Below, one piece after another: positions 13,143 through 61,947 of a stretch of 64,000 nt of DNA (its first letter is position 1; each line of letters begins with the position of its first letter). The notes beneath the pieces were generated by a model. It made no database searches. It worked only from the letters and a program-made list of their open reading frames with translations, and was not told where the DNA came from. Location of the stretch: contig CAWBQV010000005.1 of assembly GCA_963790975.1 (NCBI GenBank), forward strand, positions 124,948-188,947, read 5' to 3'. The DNA comes from an uncultured Alphaproteobacteria bacterium (GTDB taxonomy: Bacteria > Pseudomonadota > Alphaproteobacteria > Rhizobiales > Xanthobacteraceae). A program made the translations under genes and the position numbers.

Positions 13143-13493
13143 TCAGCCGCGGCTTTCGTAGAAATCGCGCGGCATGCACTGGCGTGCCGTTCGCTCCGGC
13201 TTGCCGATATTCGTCGGCGTTTTTCGTAAAATCTTCTGGCGCGTCTCCCACTGCGTCGCGGGCGGCACGCTTTTGAGCGCGCGCTTGAGACAATGGTTCG
13301 GATCGCGACGGCAGGCGCGCAGGCGCCGGCACATCTTCATCCGGCAACGCAGCCACAGCGCAAAGGCGTCGCAATAGCGCCGCTGCTGCCGCGCCCGTTC
13401 CGCCGCATAGCGTTTGGCATAGTCCGCCAGCGCGCGTTTTGGCTTCGCCGTTATTGCCGCCTCACTTGAACGCGTTCCTTGGCGCGTCCGCAT
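13143..13493 (-). CDS. Cys/Arg-rich small protein, paralog of 60101..60454
   Basis: GGAGGA Shine-Dalgarno before ATG 13493. The 40-aa core RRYCDAFALWLRCRMKMCRRLRACRRDPNHCLKRALKSVP aligns without gaps to the second copy (20/40 identical, 5 conserved Cys). Confidence 0.5.
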   Translation of the reverse strand: MRTRQGTRSSEAAITAKPKRALADYAKRYAAERARQQRRYCDAFALWLRCRMKMCRRLRACRRDPNHCLKRALKSVPPATQWETRQKILRKTPTNIGKPERTARQCMPRDFYESRG

Positions 13494-13685: not shown

Positions 13686-13706
13686 GAAGAAGGAACGGAC
13701 GAAAGA

Positions 13707-14147
13707 GAAGGAAGCGGAACGCCGGCAGGCGCAGTATTTCATGGCCCGCACGCAAGCGGCGTGCGGGGTGCACCACGGAAGAGGCGGCTTGCGCCGCCCT
13801 CCGCTTGCGGGCGCGCTCACCTGCCGACGTTCCACCACGGTTTTCGCCAGGGAGACTCTCGTCCCCGAGGCTCAGCTCCGGGCCAGGCTTCTCGGAACAC
13901 GGCGTGGCGGGGGTTACTCCGCCGGCGCCGCGCCCGGTTGCAGCGAAGCACCCCGCATGCCGGTCATAGTGCCGGCAGGCATGATGCCCGGGCCGCCCGA
14001 GTGCAGGGCTGATGAGGCCATGCCCGCGGGACACCGCACCCGCCCCATTCCGTCCGGCATCACCCGGACGGTGTCCTATCGGGCAGGATTTGATTCGGTC
14101 ATTTTGTCACCGAAACGGTGACCGACGTCAACGAGAATGTGACGATA
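13707..14147. other. conserved hairpin-dense noncoding module, copy 1 (candidate structured RNA; strand unknown)
   Basis: Collinear nucleotide similarity to 60847-61295 with conserved stems, variable loops, non-3n indels and a compensatory base-pair change. No credible ORF. Confidence 0.4.
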
Positions 14148-42952: not shown

Positions 42953-43200
42953 GAAGCCGCAGAATAATCGAGAATAATTCCGCCGGCCGTTACCGACTTG
43001 CCATCGCGGAATTCCCGGCTTATATCGAATCCGTTCTGGGGATGGAGTTCCCCCGTAACCGCCATTCGGCTGATGACTCCTGCCGGGCGCTTGGCGTCGG
43101 TAGGAGTTTTCTTTTGCTCCCACTGTCTCCAAGACTGTTTATGTGACCGTTCGAAACGGGCGCGAGCCCTGTTGCGAGCGATCGCGCCGCGCATAGGAGA

Positions 43201-45962: not shown

Positions 45963-47621
45963 TCACGCATTACCGAGCGGCAGCGCCACGAAGCGGGTGG
46001 CGTCGCCCATTTTCACGCGCATCAGCACTTCATGCTTGCCTTGCGCCGCGGCGTCCTTGAGCGCGCTGCGCACATCGCCGGCATTGGCGACGGGTTTGCC
46101 GCCGACGTCGAGGATGACGTTGCCGGTGGCAAAACCTTCGTCGGCCGCCGGCCCGTTGGGATCGACCGCGGTGACCACGACGCCCTGGCTGCCGGCGCCG
46201 GACACTTCGCTCGCCGGCGCCACTTGCAGGCCGAGATGCGGTACGCCGCCGGTCGGCTGCGCGGCGCCGGTATCGGCATTAGCCTGCCGCTGCTCGTTCG
46301 GCATCTGCTGCAGCGTCAACGACACCGTCTTCTGTTGACCCTGGCGGATGATGTCGAGCTTGACGGACGAATCCGGCGCCAGCATGCCGATGGTGCGGGC
46401 GAGATCGCGGGCGTCCTTCACCGGCGTGCCGTTGACCGTGGTGATGACGTCGCCGGACTGGATGCCGGCCGCCGCGGCGGGACTGCCGTTCTGCGGCTGG
46501 TCGACCAGCGCGCCTTGCGCCTTCGTCAAGCCGAGGCTGTCGGCGATGCCGGCGGTCACCGGCTGGATCGAAACGCCGAGCCAGCCGCGCGTGACATGGC
46601 CGGACTTCTCCAGTTCGGCCACCACCGCTTTCGCGGTATCGGCCGGGATGTCGAAGCCGATGCCGACCGAACCGCCAGACGGCGAATAGATCGCAGTGTT
46701 GACGCCGATCACGTAGCCCTCGACGTCGAACGCCGGTCCGCCGGAATTACCCTTGTTGATGGGCGCGTCGATCTGGATGTAGTCGTCATAGGGCCCCGCG
46801 CCGATGTCGCGGCCGCTGGCGGAAACAATGCCCGCCGTCACGGTGCCGCCGAGACCGAACGGATTACCGACGGCGACCACCCAGTCGCCGACTTTCGGCG
46901 GCGTGCTGGCGAATTGCACGTAAGGGAAGTCGCTCTTGCCGTCGACCTTGATCACGGCGAGGTCGGTCTTGGGATCGGTGCCGATGACTCTGGCCGTGTA
47001 GATCGAGCCGTCATCGGTCGTGACCTGCACCGATTTGGCGTGATCGACGACGTGATTGTTGGTCACGGCATAGCCGTCCGGCGAGATGAAGAAGCCGGAG
47101 CCTTCGCCGACAATGGTTTGATGGCGTTGCGGCGAATTCTGGCCTTGCTGGCCTTGCTGGCCTTGCTGGCCTTGCTGGCCTTGCTGGCCTTGCTGGCCTT
47201 GCTGGCCTTGCTGGCCTTGCTGGCCTTGCTGGCCTTGCTGGCCGAACTGATCGCCGAATTGCTGGAAGAATTTGTCGAACGGCGAGCCCGGCTGGGCGGG
47301 GATGGCCTGCTGGTCGTCGCCGTTATTGCCGTTGCCGTCGCCGCCATCCTGCATCATCGCCGGCTCGGCGGAGGCGGGGATTTTGACCCGCACCGAGATC
47401 ACCGCGGGTTTCACTTTGGTGACGAGGTCGGCGAAACCGGCCGGATGATCGAGCGTCGCGTCGGCCGCGCTCGCGGTCGGGGTGGCGAAGCCGGTCGGCC
47501 AGTAGTTACTCAGGCCGGCAAGCAACAGCGCCGCGCCGATGCCGGCGACGGACGCCAAAAGCTTGATGCGCCGGGCCGTGAGGACCCTGGCTTTACGTGA
47601 ATCGGGATTGTCCTGCGTCAT
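45963..47621 (-). CDS. degP: Do/DegP/HtrA-family periplasmic serine protease with two PDZ domains
   Basis: GGAGAC Shine-Dalgarno before ATG 47621. GSGFFISPDGYAVTNNHVV (His), DLAVIKV (Asp) and GNSGGPAF (Ser) catalytic motifs. Two PDZ-like regions. Confidence 0.9.
   Translation of the reverse strand: MTQDNPDSRKARVLTARRIKLLASVAGIGAALLLAGLSNYWPTGFATPTASAADATLDHPAGFADLVTKVKPAVISVRVKIPASAEPAMMQDGGDGNGNNGDDQQAIPAQPGSPFDKFFQQFGDQFGQQGQQGQQGQQGQQGQQGQQGQQGQQGQQGQQGQNSPQRHQTIVGEGSGFFISPDGYAVTNNHVVDHAKSVQVTTDDGSIYTARVIGTDPKTDLAVIKVDGKSDFPYVQFASTPPKVGDWVVAVGNPFGLGGTVTAGIVSASGRDIGAGPYDDYIQIDAPINKGNSGGPAFDVEGYVIGVNTAIYSPSGGSVGIGFDIPADTAKAVVAELEKSGHVTRGWLGVSIQPVTAGIADSLGLTKAQGALVDQPQNGSPAAAAGIQSGDVITTVNGTPVKDARDLARTIGMLAPDSSVKLDIIRQGQQKTVSLTLQQMPNEQRQANADTGAAQPTGGVPHLGLQVAPASEVSGAGSQGVVVTAVDPNGPAADEGFATGNVILDVGGKPVANAGDVRSALKDAAAQGKHEVLMRVKMGDATRFVALPLGNA
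47141..47239. repeat. 11 perfect tandem copies of a 9-bp unit (GGCCTTGCT) inside degP, encoding (QQG)11
   Basis: Counted directly: the units run 47141-47239 and are followed by a partial unit GGCC. Confidence 0.95.
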
Positions 47622-58220: not shown

Positions 58221-60014
58221 TCACTTCACCGGCGCGGCATCGGGAATGAAGCGCTGGCCGAACACCGGCTCCTTATACGGCGTCGGCGGCAATTCCCAGG
58301 CGCCGGTCGACGGCGGGCGCACTTCGGCGTCGACATGCACGTCGATGACGAACGGCTTGTTGGCCTTGACCGCGTGCTCGAGTGCGCCGCGGAAATCCTG
58401 CGACTTGGTCACGGTCAGCGCGTCGACGCCGGTGGCCTTGGCCCAGGCGGCAAAATCCGGATTGAACGGTTTGTTGTTGGGGCCTTCATGGAACATGGTG
58501 CCGTATTCGCGGCCGCCGAACATGCCGAGCTGAATGTCGCGGATCGAGACCCAGCCGAAATTGTTCCAGATCACCCACACCACCGGGATGTTGTATTCGA
58601 CCGCGGTGCACAGCACGTGCGGCACCATGGTGAAGCAGCCGTCGCCGGTGACCGCGACCACCGGCCGGTCCGGCGCCGCAAGTTTTGCGCCGAGCGCGCC
58701 GCAGGCGCCAAAACCCATGGCGGAAAAGCCCCAGGAGTTGAGCATGGTCTGCGGCTTCCGCGCGTTCCAGAACTGCATGTACCAGTTGTGGCTGACGCCG
58801 ACGTCGCAGCAGATGATGGCGTCCGGCGGCAGCACCGCCTGGCAATCGGCGACCACCCGCTCGGGCCGCAGCGGCGAAGTGTGCAGCTCGAAATTCGGAG
58901 CCACGAATTTTTCCCATTCGGCGCGCCATTTGGCGATGTCGGCGAGCCATTCCTTGGTGGCGCCGAGTTTTACCCGGCGGCGTTCGAGTTCGGCGAGAAG
59001 CTGGCGCAGAAACGTGCGCGCGTCGGCAAGAAGGCCGAGGTCCGGCGGATAATTGCGGCCGAGCTCGGCCGGATCGACGTCGGCATGGATGAGTTTGGTG
59101 TGCGGGAAATTCCACGAATAGCCCGGCATCCATGACGAGGCCGAGCGGTCGTCGAAGCGTGCGCCGATGGCAATGACGAGATCGGCGCGGCGGCCGGCTT
59201 CGTTGGCGGGAAACGCGCCGTTACGCCCGATGAAGCCGAGCGACAGCGCATCGGTCATGTCGAGGCAGCCCATGCCGTTGGGCGAGGAGATCACCGGGAT
59301 GCCGAGCTTTTTGGCGAACTCGGTCAGTTCGCGGCTCGCTTCCGACAGCGTCACGCCGTGGCCGATGAAGAGCACCGGCCGCTGTGCGGCAAGGATCATA
59401 TCGAGCGCGCAGGAAATCTCCTCGGGCGAGGCGCCGCTGCGTTGTGCGTTGAGCGGCGGCGCCGCCGGCGGCAGCTCGACCTCGTCCTCCTCCTGGAACA
59501 CGTTGAACGGCACGTCGATATTCACCGGTCCGGGCCGGCCCGACAGCATCGTCGTCATCGCCTGGCGCAACGCGAGCGGCAGCATGTCGACGCGGGTCGG
59601 CTGAAAGCTGCGCTTGACCACCGGACGAATGACATTGACGAAATCGGCCTGGAAATGCCGGTTGATCTCCTGGAACGGGCTGCGGTTGAACTGCGACGTC
59701 GGCACGTTGGCGGTGATGGCCAGAAGCGCCGAGGAATCCGTCAGCGCACAGGCGAGCGGCATCACGATATTGGCGGAGCCCGGCCCGCACGAGGTCAGCG
59801 TCGCCACCGGCTTGTGGCGCACGCGGAAATAGGCGTCCGCCATATGAGCCGCGACCTGCTCGTGGCGCGGCGAAACGAGCTTGATGCGGTCACGCGCCTG
59901 GTAGAGCGGATCGAGCATGCCGACATTGCCATGCCCGCAAATGCCGAAGACATAGGGAATGTCGTTCTCGATCAGATATTCGGTGATCAGTTCGGCGCCC
60001 TTCATGCGAGGCAT
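58221..60014 (-). CDS. thiamine-diphosphate-dependent enzyme (acetolactate synthase large-subunit-like)
   Basis: AGGAG Shine-Dalgarno before ATG 60014. MPRMKGAELITEYLIENDIPYVFGICGHGNVG PYR domain. GDGCFTMVPHVLCTAVEYNIPVVWVIWNN ThDP motif. The longer track ORF start (60371) is rejected. Confidence 0.85.
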   Translation of the reverse strand: MPRMKGAELITEYLIENDIPYVFGICGHGNVGMLDPLYQARDRIKLVSPRHEQVAAHMADAYFRVRHKPVATLTSCGPGSANIVMPLACALTDSSALLAITANVPTSQFNRSPFQEINRHFQADFVNVIRPVVKRSFQPTRVDMLPLALRQAMTTMLSGRPGPVNIDVPFNVFQEEDEVELPPAAPPLNAQRSGASPEEISCALDMILAAQRPVLFIGHGVTLSEASRELTEFAKKLGIPVISSPNGMGCLDMTDALSLGFIGRNGAFPANEAGRRADLVIAIGARFDDRSASSWMPGYSWNFPHTKLIHADVDPAELGRNYPPDLGLLADARTFLRQLLAELERRRVKLGATKEWLADIAKWRAEWEKFVAPNFELHTSPLRPERVVADCQAVLPPDAIICCDVGVSHNWYMQFWNARKPQTMLNSWGFSAMGFGACGALGAKLAAPDRPVVAVTGDGCFTMVPHVLCTAVEYNIPVVWVIWNNFGWVSIRDIQLGMFGGREYGTMFHEGPNNKPFNPDFAAWAKATGVDALTVTKSQDFRGALEHAVKANKPFVIDVHVDAEVRPPSTGAWELPPTPYKEPVFGQRFIPDAAPVK

Positions 60015-60100
60015 CGTCACTCCTGTCGGCTCACGGTCTTTCCCGCGGCCCGTTTCTAGCACGGTCCAAACCGTCATTGCGAGCGCGACTAATCGCACAA

Positions 60101-60454
60101 TTACGACTCGGCTTGAGTTTTGGCGCGGGTTTTCTGATTCTTCGCATCGTGCAGGCAAAGCGAATAGTGCGCATAGTGGTGGGCCATTCGGATGAAGCGG
60201 TCGGCATTTGCGGACGCCTCGGCCAGCATCCGATCGTGCGCGGCAACGCCGGCGTCGTACGGAACGCTCTGCCATCGGCTTTGCAGACAAGCGCCCTGAT
60301 CCCCCCTGCATCGCCTGGCGCTGCGGCACGGCCTGTACCGGCAGTCGCGCCAGAACGCGAACATGTCGCAATATTTCCGCGCGACGATCGCGCAGGCGGC
60401 GTCATGGCGCGCCTGCCATTCGTGCGGCGACAGCTTCTCTTCGCTTTTGCTCAT
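60101..60454 (-). CDS. Cys/Arg-rich small protein, paralog of 13143..13493
   Basis: AAGGAG Shine-Dalgarno before ATG 60454. Core RKYCDMFAFWRDCRYRPCRSARRCRGDQGACLQSRWQSVP shares the C-x8-C-x4-C-x5-C-x6-C pattern with the first copy. Confidence 0.5.
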   Translation of the reverse strand: MSKSEEKLSPHEWQARHDAACAIVARKYCDMFAFWRDCRYRPCRSARRCRGDQGACLQSRWQSVPYDAGVAAHDRMLAEASANADRFIRMAHHYAHYSLCLHDAKNQKTRAKTQAES

Positions 60455-60846
60455 GGCAATAGTTCTCCTTCTCGCGATGCATTTCTTCATCCCGCCCCGC
60501 GCTAGCGGGAAAGCCACGTCGAAAACAGCGTTTGGAGATGACGAATTTTTCAAGGTAGGGATTGGCATCGTTAGCCCGTCACAGCGAGGCATTGAAGCCG
60601 CATTTTGGCTGGCGAGGTAGAGGCGAGCCATTCGACGTAACGCATCCTGAGTACGCACTTTCGTCCGTGGTTCGGTGCGGGGGGCGGGAAGGCCACAATC
60701 CGATTCAGGCGTCGCGTCGAGTGGCCTACTTTAGCGGATATCGCTATACCCCCCCGCTATCGCGGGGGCGGATAATTCTTCACCGTTCTCGCGACGCATT
60801 CGCGCCCGAGGTTTTGCAAAAGGAAATTTCAAGAACCTCCCAAAAA

Positions 60847-61295
60847 GAAGGGAGGCGAAGCGCCGAAAGGCGCATCCAACCATTGGCCGCGTCAGGGTGA
60901 CGGGCGTTGCCGCCCATCCAACCGTCGCCGCGGCGCGCGTCCAGCGGGACGCGCTCGCCTTTCGGCGCTCCACCGCGGCTCTCGCCGGAGGCTTTTGGCC
61001 CTACTGGCTCAGCTCCAGGCCATGCTTCCTGGGACGTGGATCCAGCGGGCGTTACCCGCCATCACCTGTCCCAGTCCAGGGACAGCACCTCCCGCGCCGG
61101 CCGTAGTACCGGCGTGAATGATGCCCGGAGCCGCCCGGGCGCGGCTCGTAACGCCGCGCGCGGGGACCGCCCTCGTTCCACTTTCGAAAGTACCCTCGCG
61201 AAAGTACCCTCGCGAAAGGCCCCTCCGTGAACGAGATGGGGGATTGTATCCGATATGGTGACGGATGTCAAGAGAGTGTCACTAATAAAGTGACA
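60847..61295. other. conserved hairpin-dense noncoding module, copy 2 (candidate structured RNA; strand unknown)
   Basis: Collinear with 13707-14147. It contains the GNRA-capped stem GCGCC-GAAA-GGCGC, a GCGGG-CGTTA-CCCGC hairpin, a GCCGG-8nt-CCGGC hairpin and a 3' GTCAC/GTGAC hairpin. No credible ORF. Confidence 0.4.
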
Positions 61296-61306
61296 AGGCG
61301 CAACCC

Positions 61307-61947
61307 GTAGGATGGGTAGAGCGTAGCGAAACCCATCATCTTTCTATCGGCCCATCATCGCTCCCCGAAACCGCGCTCATTGTCCACCGCATCTCCCGCC
61401 CAGTCGAGCGGATAGACGCCAAGCCGCACCATGCGATGAAACGACGAATACGGCCAATCTCTCACTCGGCTGACATGTCCATGCTTCACCGGATTGAAAA
61501 GAATGTAATCGACGTGCCGCGCGAGATCCGCTTCGTCGCGCAACGTGTGCTCCCAATAGCGCCGCTGCCAGATGCCGCGCTCGGCTTTGCCGGCGCGGCT
61601 CTCTGAAATCCGCTCGCCTGCCGGCAGAGCGCGGGAGAATGCCGATTTGATCTGCCGCCAGCGCAGCGCAAAGTCAGCATCATCTTGCGGCAATGTCCAA
61701 ACCGCATGCAGATGATCGGGCAGGACAACGATCGCGTCGATTTCGAACGGATGGCGCCGCCGCACTTCACGGAATGCTTGGCGCAGCAAATCGATGTAAT
61801 CGGTAAGCAGACGCAGCCGCCGTTCGGCGAGATTTACCGTGAAGAAAAAGCTGCCGCCGGAAATAAAATTGCGTCGATAGTTGGTCATCGCCTCAGCATT
61901 GCAAAACCGCCGAGGCGATGGGTTTCGCTTCGCTCTACCCATCCTAC
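61307..61947 (-). mobile_element. REP-RAYT-REP unit (REPtron-like)
   Basis: GTAGGATGGGTAGAGCGTAGCGAAACCCATC (61307-61337) and its inverted copy GATGGGTTTCGCTTCGCTCTACCCATCCTAC (61917-61947) flank the transposase gene. Confidence 0.75.
61355..61888 (-). CDS. REP-associated tyrosine transposase (RAYT, IS200/IS605-like Y1 HUH enzyme)
   Basis: MTNYRRNFISGGSFFFTVNL...VVLPDHLHAVW (HUH motif)...RGIWQRRYWEH...HVDYILFNPVKHG (catalytic Tyr region). Start at the internal Met 61888; the longer track ORF runs into the REP. Confidence 0.8.
   Translation of the reverse strand: MTNYRRNFISGGSFFFTVNLAERRLRLLTDYIDLLRQAFREVRRRHPFEIDAIVVLPDHLHAVWTLPQDDADFALRWRQIKSAFSRALPAGERISESRAGKAERGIWQRRYWEHTLRDEADLARHVDYILFNPVKHGHVSRVRDWPYSSFHRMVRLGVYPLDWAGDAVDNERGFGER

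Follow-up and report, generated by a model that had tools for sequence, protein, structure and literature searches.

The window analysed here, a stretch of DNA of 64,000 nucleotides, carries on its minus strand an open reading frame whose predicted product is rich in cysteine and arginine and which lies downstream of a conserved module of several hundred nucleotides. This locus raises two questions, whether the frame is a protein-coding gene at all and, if it is, what binds it to the module in front of it. The features on which the first question turns are as follows.

60101..60454, minus strand: coding sequence of the Cys/Arg-rich protein (paralogue 2), 117 aa, stop codon included; from homologues, codon pattern and AlphaFold2 (AF2) model
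60465..60470, minus strand: Shine-Dalgarno site AAGGAG, 10 nt 5' of the ATG; kept at the orthologous loci L049, L052 and L053
60073..60085, plus strand: REP-like fragment GTCATTGCGAGCG, 16 nt past the stop codon; also present 3' of the orthologue in L049
13143..13493, minus strand: coding sequence of paralogue 1, 116 aa; AF2 model with the same helix order

The frame runs from an ATG at 60454-60452 to a TAA at 60103-60101 and encodes a protein of ~13.5 kDa. The original prediction had described a cysteine core of the form C-x8-C-x4-C-x5-C-x6-C, which is found at C29, C38, C43, C49 and C56, and had placed the real start at ATG 60454, holding the longer listed frame of 60101..60658 to be overextended. 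Both statements about the start stand, as the MSK with which most homologues open falls at this ATG. An AAGGAG Shine-Dalgarno site had also been proposed 8 nt upstream of the start; the site is there at 60470-60465, but the gap that separates it from the ATG (AACTATTGCC) measures 10 nt. The repeat GTCATTGCGAGCG reported beyond the stop codon was likewise located on the plus strand, and it occurs in only two copies in the whole window.

A word-indexed search returned 94 close homologues of the protein, all of them unnamed or annotated as “hypothetical”, and the named sources among them are Xanthobacteraceae MAGs. Differences between the frame and its orthologues at L049, L052 and L053 number 11/5/25, 18/19/38 and 17/14/31, respectively, at codon positions 1/2/3, and this excess of change at third positions, together with the intact relatives, shows that the gene is real. 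Frame-disrupted orthologues, which the original prediction had named as a possible refutation, were looked for, and no internal stop was present in any of the more than 100 core-profile hits among the genomes of the family. Apparent stops inside some hits were considered as signs of pseudogenes and rejected, being the natural stop codons of shorter proteins of the paralogue-1 type that the long profile overruns. High-GC genomes yield many long spurious frames, and the frame could on that account be untranslated and conserved only at the level of RNA or DNA; with differences clustered at third codon positions, a cysteine pattern that stays invariant across proteins down to 20% identity, a Shine-Dalgarno site and ATG conserved in all genera and confident AF2 models, we consider this reading scarcely credible.

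The protein belongs to a sizeable family, referred to here as the Cys4 family. The frames at 13143..13493 and 60101..60454 are a Cys/Arg-rich paralogue pair, as had been proposed, with 33% identity over 82 aa by BLASTP (E 1e-12). Searching 1.84 billion cluster representatives with the family profile at a cut-off of E <= 1e-3 gave 375 clusters (50% identity) with a usual length of 100-170 aa. Members, at ~100-170 aa, share the core W-x2-C-x4-C-[RK]R-x3-C-x-G-[DE]-x3-C, every feature of which the window frame possesses. Conservation was read from two alignments, of 43 sequences (A5) and of 82 sequences (A6). Only the four cysteines corresponding to C38, C43, C49 and C56 are invariant in distant members; in A6, conservation reaches at least 90% at C29, at the tryptophan three residues N-terminal of C38 and at the glycine that follows C49. 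Across the family, the stretch that the cysteines enclose abounds in arginine and lysine. The two window proteins have pI values of 9.2 and 11.3, and neither has a hydrophobic segment, which argues that both are cytoplasmic and soluble.

AlphaFold2 predicts an all-helical structure for the product of 60101..60454 (pLDDT 82.8, pTM 0.74) and, from an alignment distinct from that of paralogue 2, a comparable one for paralogue 1 (pLDDT 85.3, pTM 0.72). Both models present their elements in the same order, in that a long N-terminal helix is succeeded by two short ones that surround the cysteines and then by three more. Scans of the protein against Pfam (E <= 1), NCBIfam, PHROGs and PADLOC gave no match, and no PDB sequence matched the family profile. 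Foldseek returned nothing below E = 2 for the model against PDB and BFVD, and zero matches against PDB for the model of paralogue 1. No RNA-binding fold or domain was recognised in the protein by Pfam, the PDB profile search or Foldseek. A literature search for the RNA motif described below or for a Cys-rich partner in Xanthobacteraceae or Bradyrhizobium found no description of either.

As four invariant cysteines lie within 19 residues of a cytoplasmic protein, the most likely function of C38, C43, C49 and C56, together with C29 in most members, is to hold a metal centre, be it zinc or an iron-sulfur cluster. Their spacing, C-x4-C-x5-C-x6-C, is unlike any known metal-site motif and fits neither zinc-ribbon knuckles nor WhiB. 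Zinc-ribbon and treble-clef fingers are built from two CxxC (or CxxH) knuckles on beta-hairpins, and an assignment to this class was rejected on the grounds that there is no CxxC pair, that the AF2 models are all-helical and that there is no match in Pfam or PDB. A secreted disulfide-rich peptide was rejected as well, the protein having neither a signal peptide nor a hydrophobic segment.

The second question concerns what stands upstream. The original prediction had placed a conserved module on the minus strand in front of the gene, and this module proved to be the greater part of a structured RNA gene, the elements of which, with those of its junction to the coding sequence, are listed below.

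60783..61236, minus strand: structured RNA gene, copy 2; from the nhmmer profile and covariance model R1 (102 bits), the transcribed part inferred to lie between the -10 box and the terminal hairpin
13700..14140, minus strand: structured RNA gene, copy 1, 5' of paralogue 1; from module comparison and the nhmmer profile
61243..61271, minus strand: promoter TTGACA-17 nt-TACAAT; 11 of 12 consensus positions, kept across RNA copies
60956..60974, minus strand: 5' strand of a long-range helix; covariation and RNAalifold
60854..60872, minus strand: 3' strand of the same helix; covariation and RNAalifold
60836..60855, minus strand: hairpin CCUCCC-loop-GGGAGG directly 3' of the long helix; in nearly all copies and genera
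60783..60811, minus strand: terminal hairpin CUCGG-GCGC-loop-GCGU-CGCGAG, then AACGG; kept after 10 of 10 RNA copies of the same genome and in distant genera
60481..60782, minus strand: poorly conserved spacer that separates the terminal motif from its second copy; orthologous loci in a five-way alignment
60467..60480, minus strand: second copy of the RNA terminal motif GCRYCGCGAGAASG, overlapping the Shine-Dalgarno site; 14-mer count in the window

The modules in front of the two paralogues are about 67% identical over ~450 nt. Structure was tested on the long-range helix, in which GGUGGAGCGCCGAAAGGCG (60974-60956) pairs with CGCCUUUCGGCGCUUCGCC (60872-60854). Over 30 sequences drawn from many genera, paired cells make up 96.9% and compensatory change is seen in 8 of 16 pairs; none of 500 shuffles scored as high, slid registers were only 35-58% paired, and RNAalifold independently predicted the same helix. 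Beyond it, the CCUCCC hairpin and the terminal element (60811-60783), a hairpin followed by GCGAGAACG whose outer stem exchanges U-A for C-G between genera, are both conserved, and the RNA therefore reaches ~65 nt further 3' than the module as first drawn. Rfam models run against both module copies, at gathering thresholds and at E <= 10, gave only chance-level matches of microRNA type. Elsewhere in the window, the only Rfam match at gathering level is a fluoride riboswitch (crcB motif) at 43029-43089 on the plus strand (57.9 bits), and a perfect 9-bp tandem array, (GGCCTTGCT)n, occupies 47100-47261 with about 12 copies.

The promoter is the sole sigma-70-like site in 59900-61500, and it probably drives not only the RNA gene but also the coding sequence behind it. 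Several local peculiarities of this copy were observed around it. The 5' part of the RNA contains a 14-nt tandem duplication at 61185-61218 (CGAAAGTACCCTCG x2.4, read on the plus strand), absent from the orthologous copies L049, L052, L053 and L004. Directly 5' of the -35 box lies an inverted repeat, TGTCAC-N7-GTGACA (61277-61295), the arms of which co-vary in orthologues (GTCTC...GAGAC) and which for that reason is perhaps a hairpin or insulator instead of a fixed protein-binding site. Directly upstream of the promoter is a RAYT-like (IS200/IS605-type) transposase frame at 61355-61942, and REP-type sequences are inserted between the RNA hairpins in several copies of the same genome.

The interval between module and gene had been described as 390 nt of repeat-rich spacer, a description that requires refinement at both ends. 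The first ~65-100 nt belong to the conserved 3' extension of the RNA, which runs to about 60783 or perhaps 60750, and the last ~14 nt (60480-60467) repeat the terminal motif of the RNA. This motif, GCRYCGCGAGAASG, occurs twice in 64 kb, at 60797-60784 in the terminal element and at 60480-60467, with 0.03 occurrences expected by chance, and the ribosome-binding site of the gene is thus a second copy of the RNA 3' end. At 18 loci in other genera, a good Shine-Dalgarno site and ATG stand 30-70 nt past the terminal RNA hairpin, which has no U-run. The ~300 nt between the two motif copies, which include a GC hairpin at 60749-60771, are probably an insertion into an originally compact junction. The minus strand between RNA and coding sequence contains neither a promoter-like nor a terminator-like pattern. 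This anatomy fits a single transcript of the kind that the original prediction had suggested for testing, in which RNA and coding sequence would be co-transcribed from the RNA promoter with the module as a long 5' leader.

In the linkage test, the module nhmmer profile was run on every locus with a homologue of the coding sequence, in the same genus, in other genera of the family and on metagenome contigs. The RNA was found upstream on the same strand at 48 of the 52 loci, and at 48 of the 49 that could be assessed (~98%), at a median distance of ~200 nt (range 63-622, with one at 1498). Of the four loci without a match, three are truncated by the end of a contig, and the fourth is truly solo (L032, also L067; G001:C2:2536394-2536675, minus strand), being the only copy of the coding sequence without an RNA, with no R1 match within 4.3 kb upstream; this copy could tell whether the Cys4 protein is expressed and retained alone. 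Given about 11 RNA copies in 4.6 Mb, chance would produce such adjacency with a probability of about 1e-3 per locus. Newly found distant coding sequences show the same order, each with an R1 match 200-400 nt upstream on the same strand.

The surroundings of the pair vary. A close orthologue (P0002) retains the neighbours seen in the window, a ThDP enzyme and an amidase, whereas in P0023 and P0030 the coding sequence lies upstream of gltX and citrate synthase with the RNA still present, and a third conserved gene was sought beside RNA and coding sequence without any being found to recur. As the neighbourhoods differ and no third gene recurs, RNA and coding sequence form a conserved unit whose parts move together. 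Beyond the family, a core match was obtained in 16 genomes from other families of the order; among the loci checked, the RNA is clearly upstream at one (L058, 65 bits) and weakly so at three others. It is near certain that the frame at 60101..60454 is a real gene and that it is linked to the RNA.

How far the two depend on each other was read from 151 genomes sampled evenly across the GTDB family and scored for the RNA with covariance model R1, which covers the RNA 3' domain, and for the coding sequence with core profile A5. The RNA was detected in 84 genomes from 39 genera, with copy numbers that rise to at least 22 per genome, and the coding sequence in 62 genomes from 31 genera, with 1-5 copies each. 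The RNA is present in all 62 genomes with the coding sequence, and the coding sequence is missing from each of the 67 RNA-free genomes (Fisher p 6e-24). The reverse does not hold, the coding sequence being absent from 22 of the 84 RNA-bearing genomes, some of which have from 13 to at least 22 RNA copies. In the genome from which the window comes, the coding sequence follows 2 of about 10 full RNA copies, leaving 8 of 10 without it.

A dependence in this one direction, and an order of promoter, non-coding RNA and small frame that is also the layout of ToxIN, would be expected of a type III-like toxin-antitoxin system, the class of ToxIN, CptIN and TenpIN, in which the RNA, made upstream from the same promoter, neutralises a toxic protein. 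We regard this as very improbable. Neither PADLOC nor Pfam gave a toxin match, nor did Foldseek, and the predicted fold is all-helical, unlike known ToxN/AbiE-type RNases; in addition, the RNA is large, structured and multi-copy and is not a tandem-repeat array, TRF finding in it only the 14-nt duplication.

The RNA gene itself behaves as a dispersed repeat, via mobility or gene conversion. In two genomes of the sample (G002 and G100; loci L061-L066), RNA genes are 95-97% identical over ~440-650 nt, promoter and 3' extension included, between flanks that are unrelated; a brief look for terminal repeats at the edges of the near-identical copies in G002 brought up nothing clear. Many R1 matches in other genomes sit at contig ends. 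In the window's own genome (G000), the copies are only ~70% alike.

Individual copies in this genome deserve description in their own right. One appears to be split by an insertion of ~26 kb (C1:767476-794347), its 5' part (profile positions 2-163) lying at 794347-794191 on the minus strand with a P4-type tyrosine integrase gene no more than ~170 nt beyond it, and its 3' part (positions 149-415) at 767772-767476 on the minus strand. The two parts overlap by ~15 nt, which could be an attachment core; if so, the RNA gene would serve as an integration site for islands in the manner of a tRNA gene. Partial 5' copies at C1:46091-45932 and C2:1921582-1921728 end at the same profile position (~163-166), each with a related integrase gene after it. 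Finally, two near-identical copies, sister to the copy of paralogue 1, lie at C3:138321-138770 and C7:37438-36990, and the gene ~50 nt past their terminal elements encodes not the Cys protein but an ABC substrate-binding protein; both contigs may represent a single region that is duplicated or mis-split.

Two further explanations draw on these copies. The first holds that the unit of RNA and coding sequence is the autonomous member of an RNA-gene family that is mobile or amplifies itself, that the copies without the coding sequence are non-autonomous and that the protein spreads or maintains them. Such a logic would resemble that of RAYT with REPINs, or of group II introns with and without a reading frame. 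The identity of RNA copies between unrelated flanks in G002 and G100, the repeat-like position of many matches at contig ends, the ratio of 1-5 coding sequences to many RNA copies and the occurrence of the unit in different neighbourhoods are all in keeping with it. Against it stands a 117-aa all-helical protein without a nuclease, recombinase or reverse-transcriptase motif; terminal inverted repeats or target duplications were not seen at copy boundaries in a brief look, the ~70% likeness of copies within the window's genome speaks against recent spread there, and the high identity elsewhere could stem from gene conversion. We consider this account quite improbable.

The second takes the RNA to be a portable promoter and leader, a cis-acting cassette for expression or regulation, with the Cys protein as its commonest cargo and functioning without it, for instance as a regulator of the WhiB-like kind that senses redox state or metal. 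That adjacency reflects nothing beyond shared use of a promoter could be the case. Other genes do start soon after RNA copies that lack the coding sequence, in the same orientation, among them the ABC substrate-binding protein gene at C3:138770 and C7:36990 and an L,D-transpeptidase gene at C2:701601, the RNA occurs without the coding sequence in 22 genomes, and a small helical protein with four cysteines would suit a WhiB-like cargo. An independent cargo should, however, sometimes be found under other promoters, and the coding sequence stands alone at 1 of 49 loci and in none of the RNA-free genomes. Across genera, the coding sequence is the only gene that is repeatedly met behind the RNA, and the protein has neither a Pfam Whib match nor the WhiB cysteine spacing. 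On balance, we judge a portable leader unlikely.

The reading that we prefer, with a probability of roughly 55%, is that the Cys4 protein is a basic, all-helical metalloprotein, encoded by the 3' cistron of the RNA transcript, that works as a partner of the RNA family; its metal binding, RNA binding and co-transcription are what we infer from sequence and models. That the protein works with the RNA is suggested by the nesting of coding-sequence occurrence within RNA occurrence, by its placement on the presumed RNA transcript and by the 1-5 coding sequences that face many RNA copies. Transcription would start at the strong promoter of the ~450-nt structured RNA gene and run on into the coding sequence as its 3' cistron. 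The protein, functionally dependent on the RNA family, would then bind the RNA as a partner, chaperone or regulator, and, being made from a few “master” copies, would act both on its own copy and on the many copies elsewhere in the genome that have no coding sequence. Several observations count against this reading, namely the existence of the RNA without the coding sequence in 22 of the 84 RNA-bearing genomes and in most copies of the window's genome, the one coding sequence without an RNA within 4.3 kb, a cysteine spacing that is that of no known metal site, and a protein in which no RNA-binding fold or domain was recognised. Direct binding of the RNA by the protein, as a separate proposition, is plausible at somewhat less than even odds.

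Taken together, an orphan protein and an undescribed large folded RNA, paired in dozens of genomes of soil bacteria, point to a new RNA-protein partnership. In its widest and more tentative form, which we would put below even direct binding, the proposal is of a new ribonucleoprotein system of the Xanthobacteraceae and other Rhizobiales, comprising a multi-copy RNA of ~450-500 nt of which 1-5 master copies co-encode a Cys4 metalloprotein of new fold that would bind or remodel all copies, with RNA genes that may be mobile and may serve as island integration sites. Large structured bacterial RNAs without an assigned function are rare, and a dedicated partner protein is the usual way into their biology. 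Here, an orphan protein family is tied to its RNA more tightly than are most known pairs, at ~98% of loci and with no member in RNA-free genomes, and the pair offers a testable handle on both molecules. Several of the carriers are complete single-contig genomes and may be cultured isolates. The wider questions are how a promoter-bearing RNA gene reaches 20 or more copies per genome and why so few of these copies keep the protein gene.

Known systems resemble this one in different respects. The OLE RNA of Bacillota, with oapA, oapB and oapC, is a large structured non-coding RNA beside the gene of a protein believed to work with it, and the function of that partnership was found only via gene adjacency. 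OLE RNA and its partner genes are cited as context in PMC12286853. The likeness lies in an RNA gene that adjoins the gene of a putative partner, with no relation in sequence or fold to the Cys4 pair; OapA is a membrane protein whereas the Cys4 protein is soluble and basic, and OLE is single-copy whereas the Cys4-linked RNA is multi-copy. The Rfam OLE model (RF01071) matched neither module copy at the gathering threshold or at E <= 10. In Rhodobacter sphaeroides, the sRNAs CcsR1-4 are co-transcribed with the small DUF1127 protein CcaF1, which binds RNA. This is again an alphaproteobacterial combination, on one transcript, of a small basic protein with structured RNAs that carry C/U-rich motifs of CCUCC type, co-transcription being in our case predicted. 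There, however, the coding sequence comes first and the RNAs are short hairpins, while here the coding sequence comes last and the RNA measures ~450 nt; CcaF1 has no cysteine motif, and the Cys4 protein has no Pfam DUF1127 match.

The remaining comparisons concern one half of the system or its layout. WhiB-like (Wbl) proteins have the pattern C-Xn-C-X2-C-X5-C, a G[VI]WGG turn and a [4Fe-4S] cluster, bind sigma factor A and are to our knowledge confined to Actinobacteria. Like the Cys4 protein, they are small (~80-120 aa in their case) helical proteins of the cytoplasm that have four invariant cysteines and a basic region. Identity with this family (PF02467) was rejected, given the absence of any Pfam hit at E <= 1, the spacing C-x4-C-x5-C-x6-C, a host in the Rhizobiales and a gene tied to an RNA. 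RAYT/REPIN systems share the arrangement of one or a few protein genes always flanked by a dispersed repeat with many protein-less copies, but they pair an HUH/Y1 transposase (RAYT) with short DNA hairpins (REPINs), whereas the repeat of the present system is an RNA gene with a promoter and its protein lacks any enzyme motif. ToxIN has the same succession of promoter, non-coding RNA and coding sequence, from which the present system departs in its multi-copy RNA and in lacking both a repeat array and homology to toxins. None of these systems is related to the present one by sequence or fold; the closest in logic are OLE RNA/OapA and CcsR/CcaF1, and the WhiB-like proteins resemble the Cys4 protein in general type.
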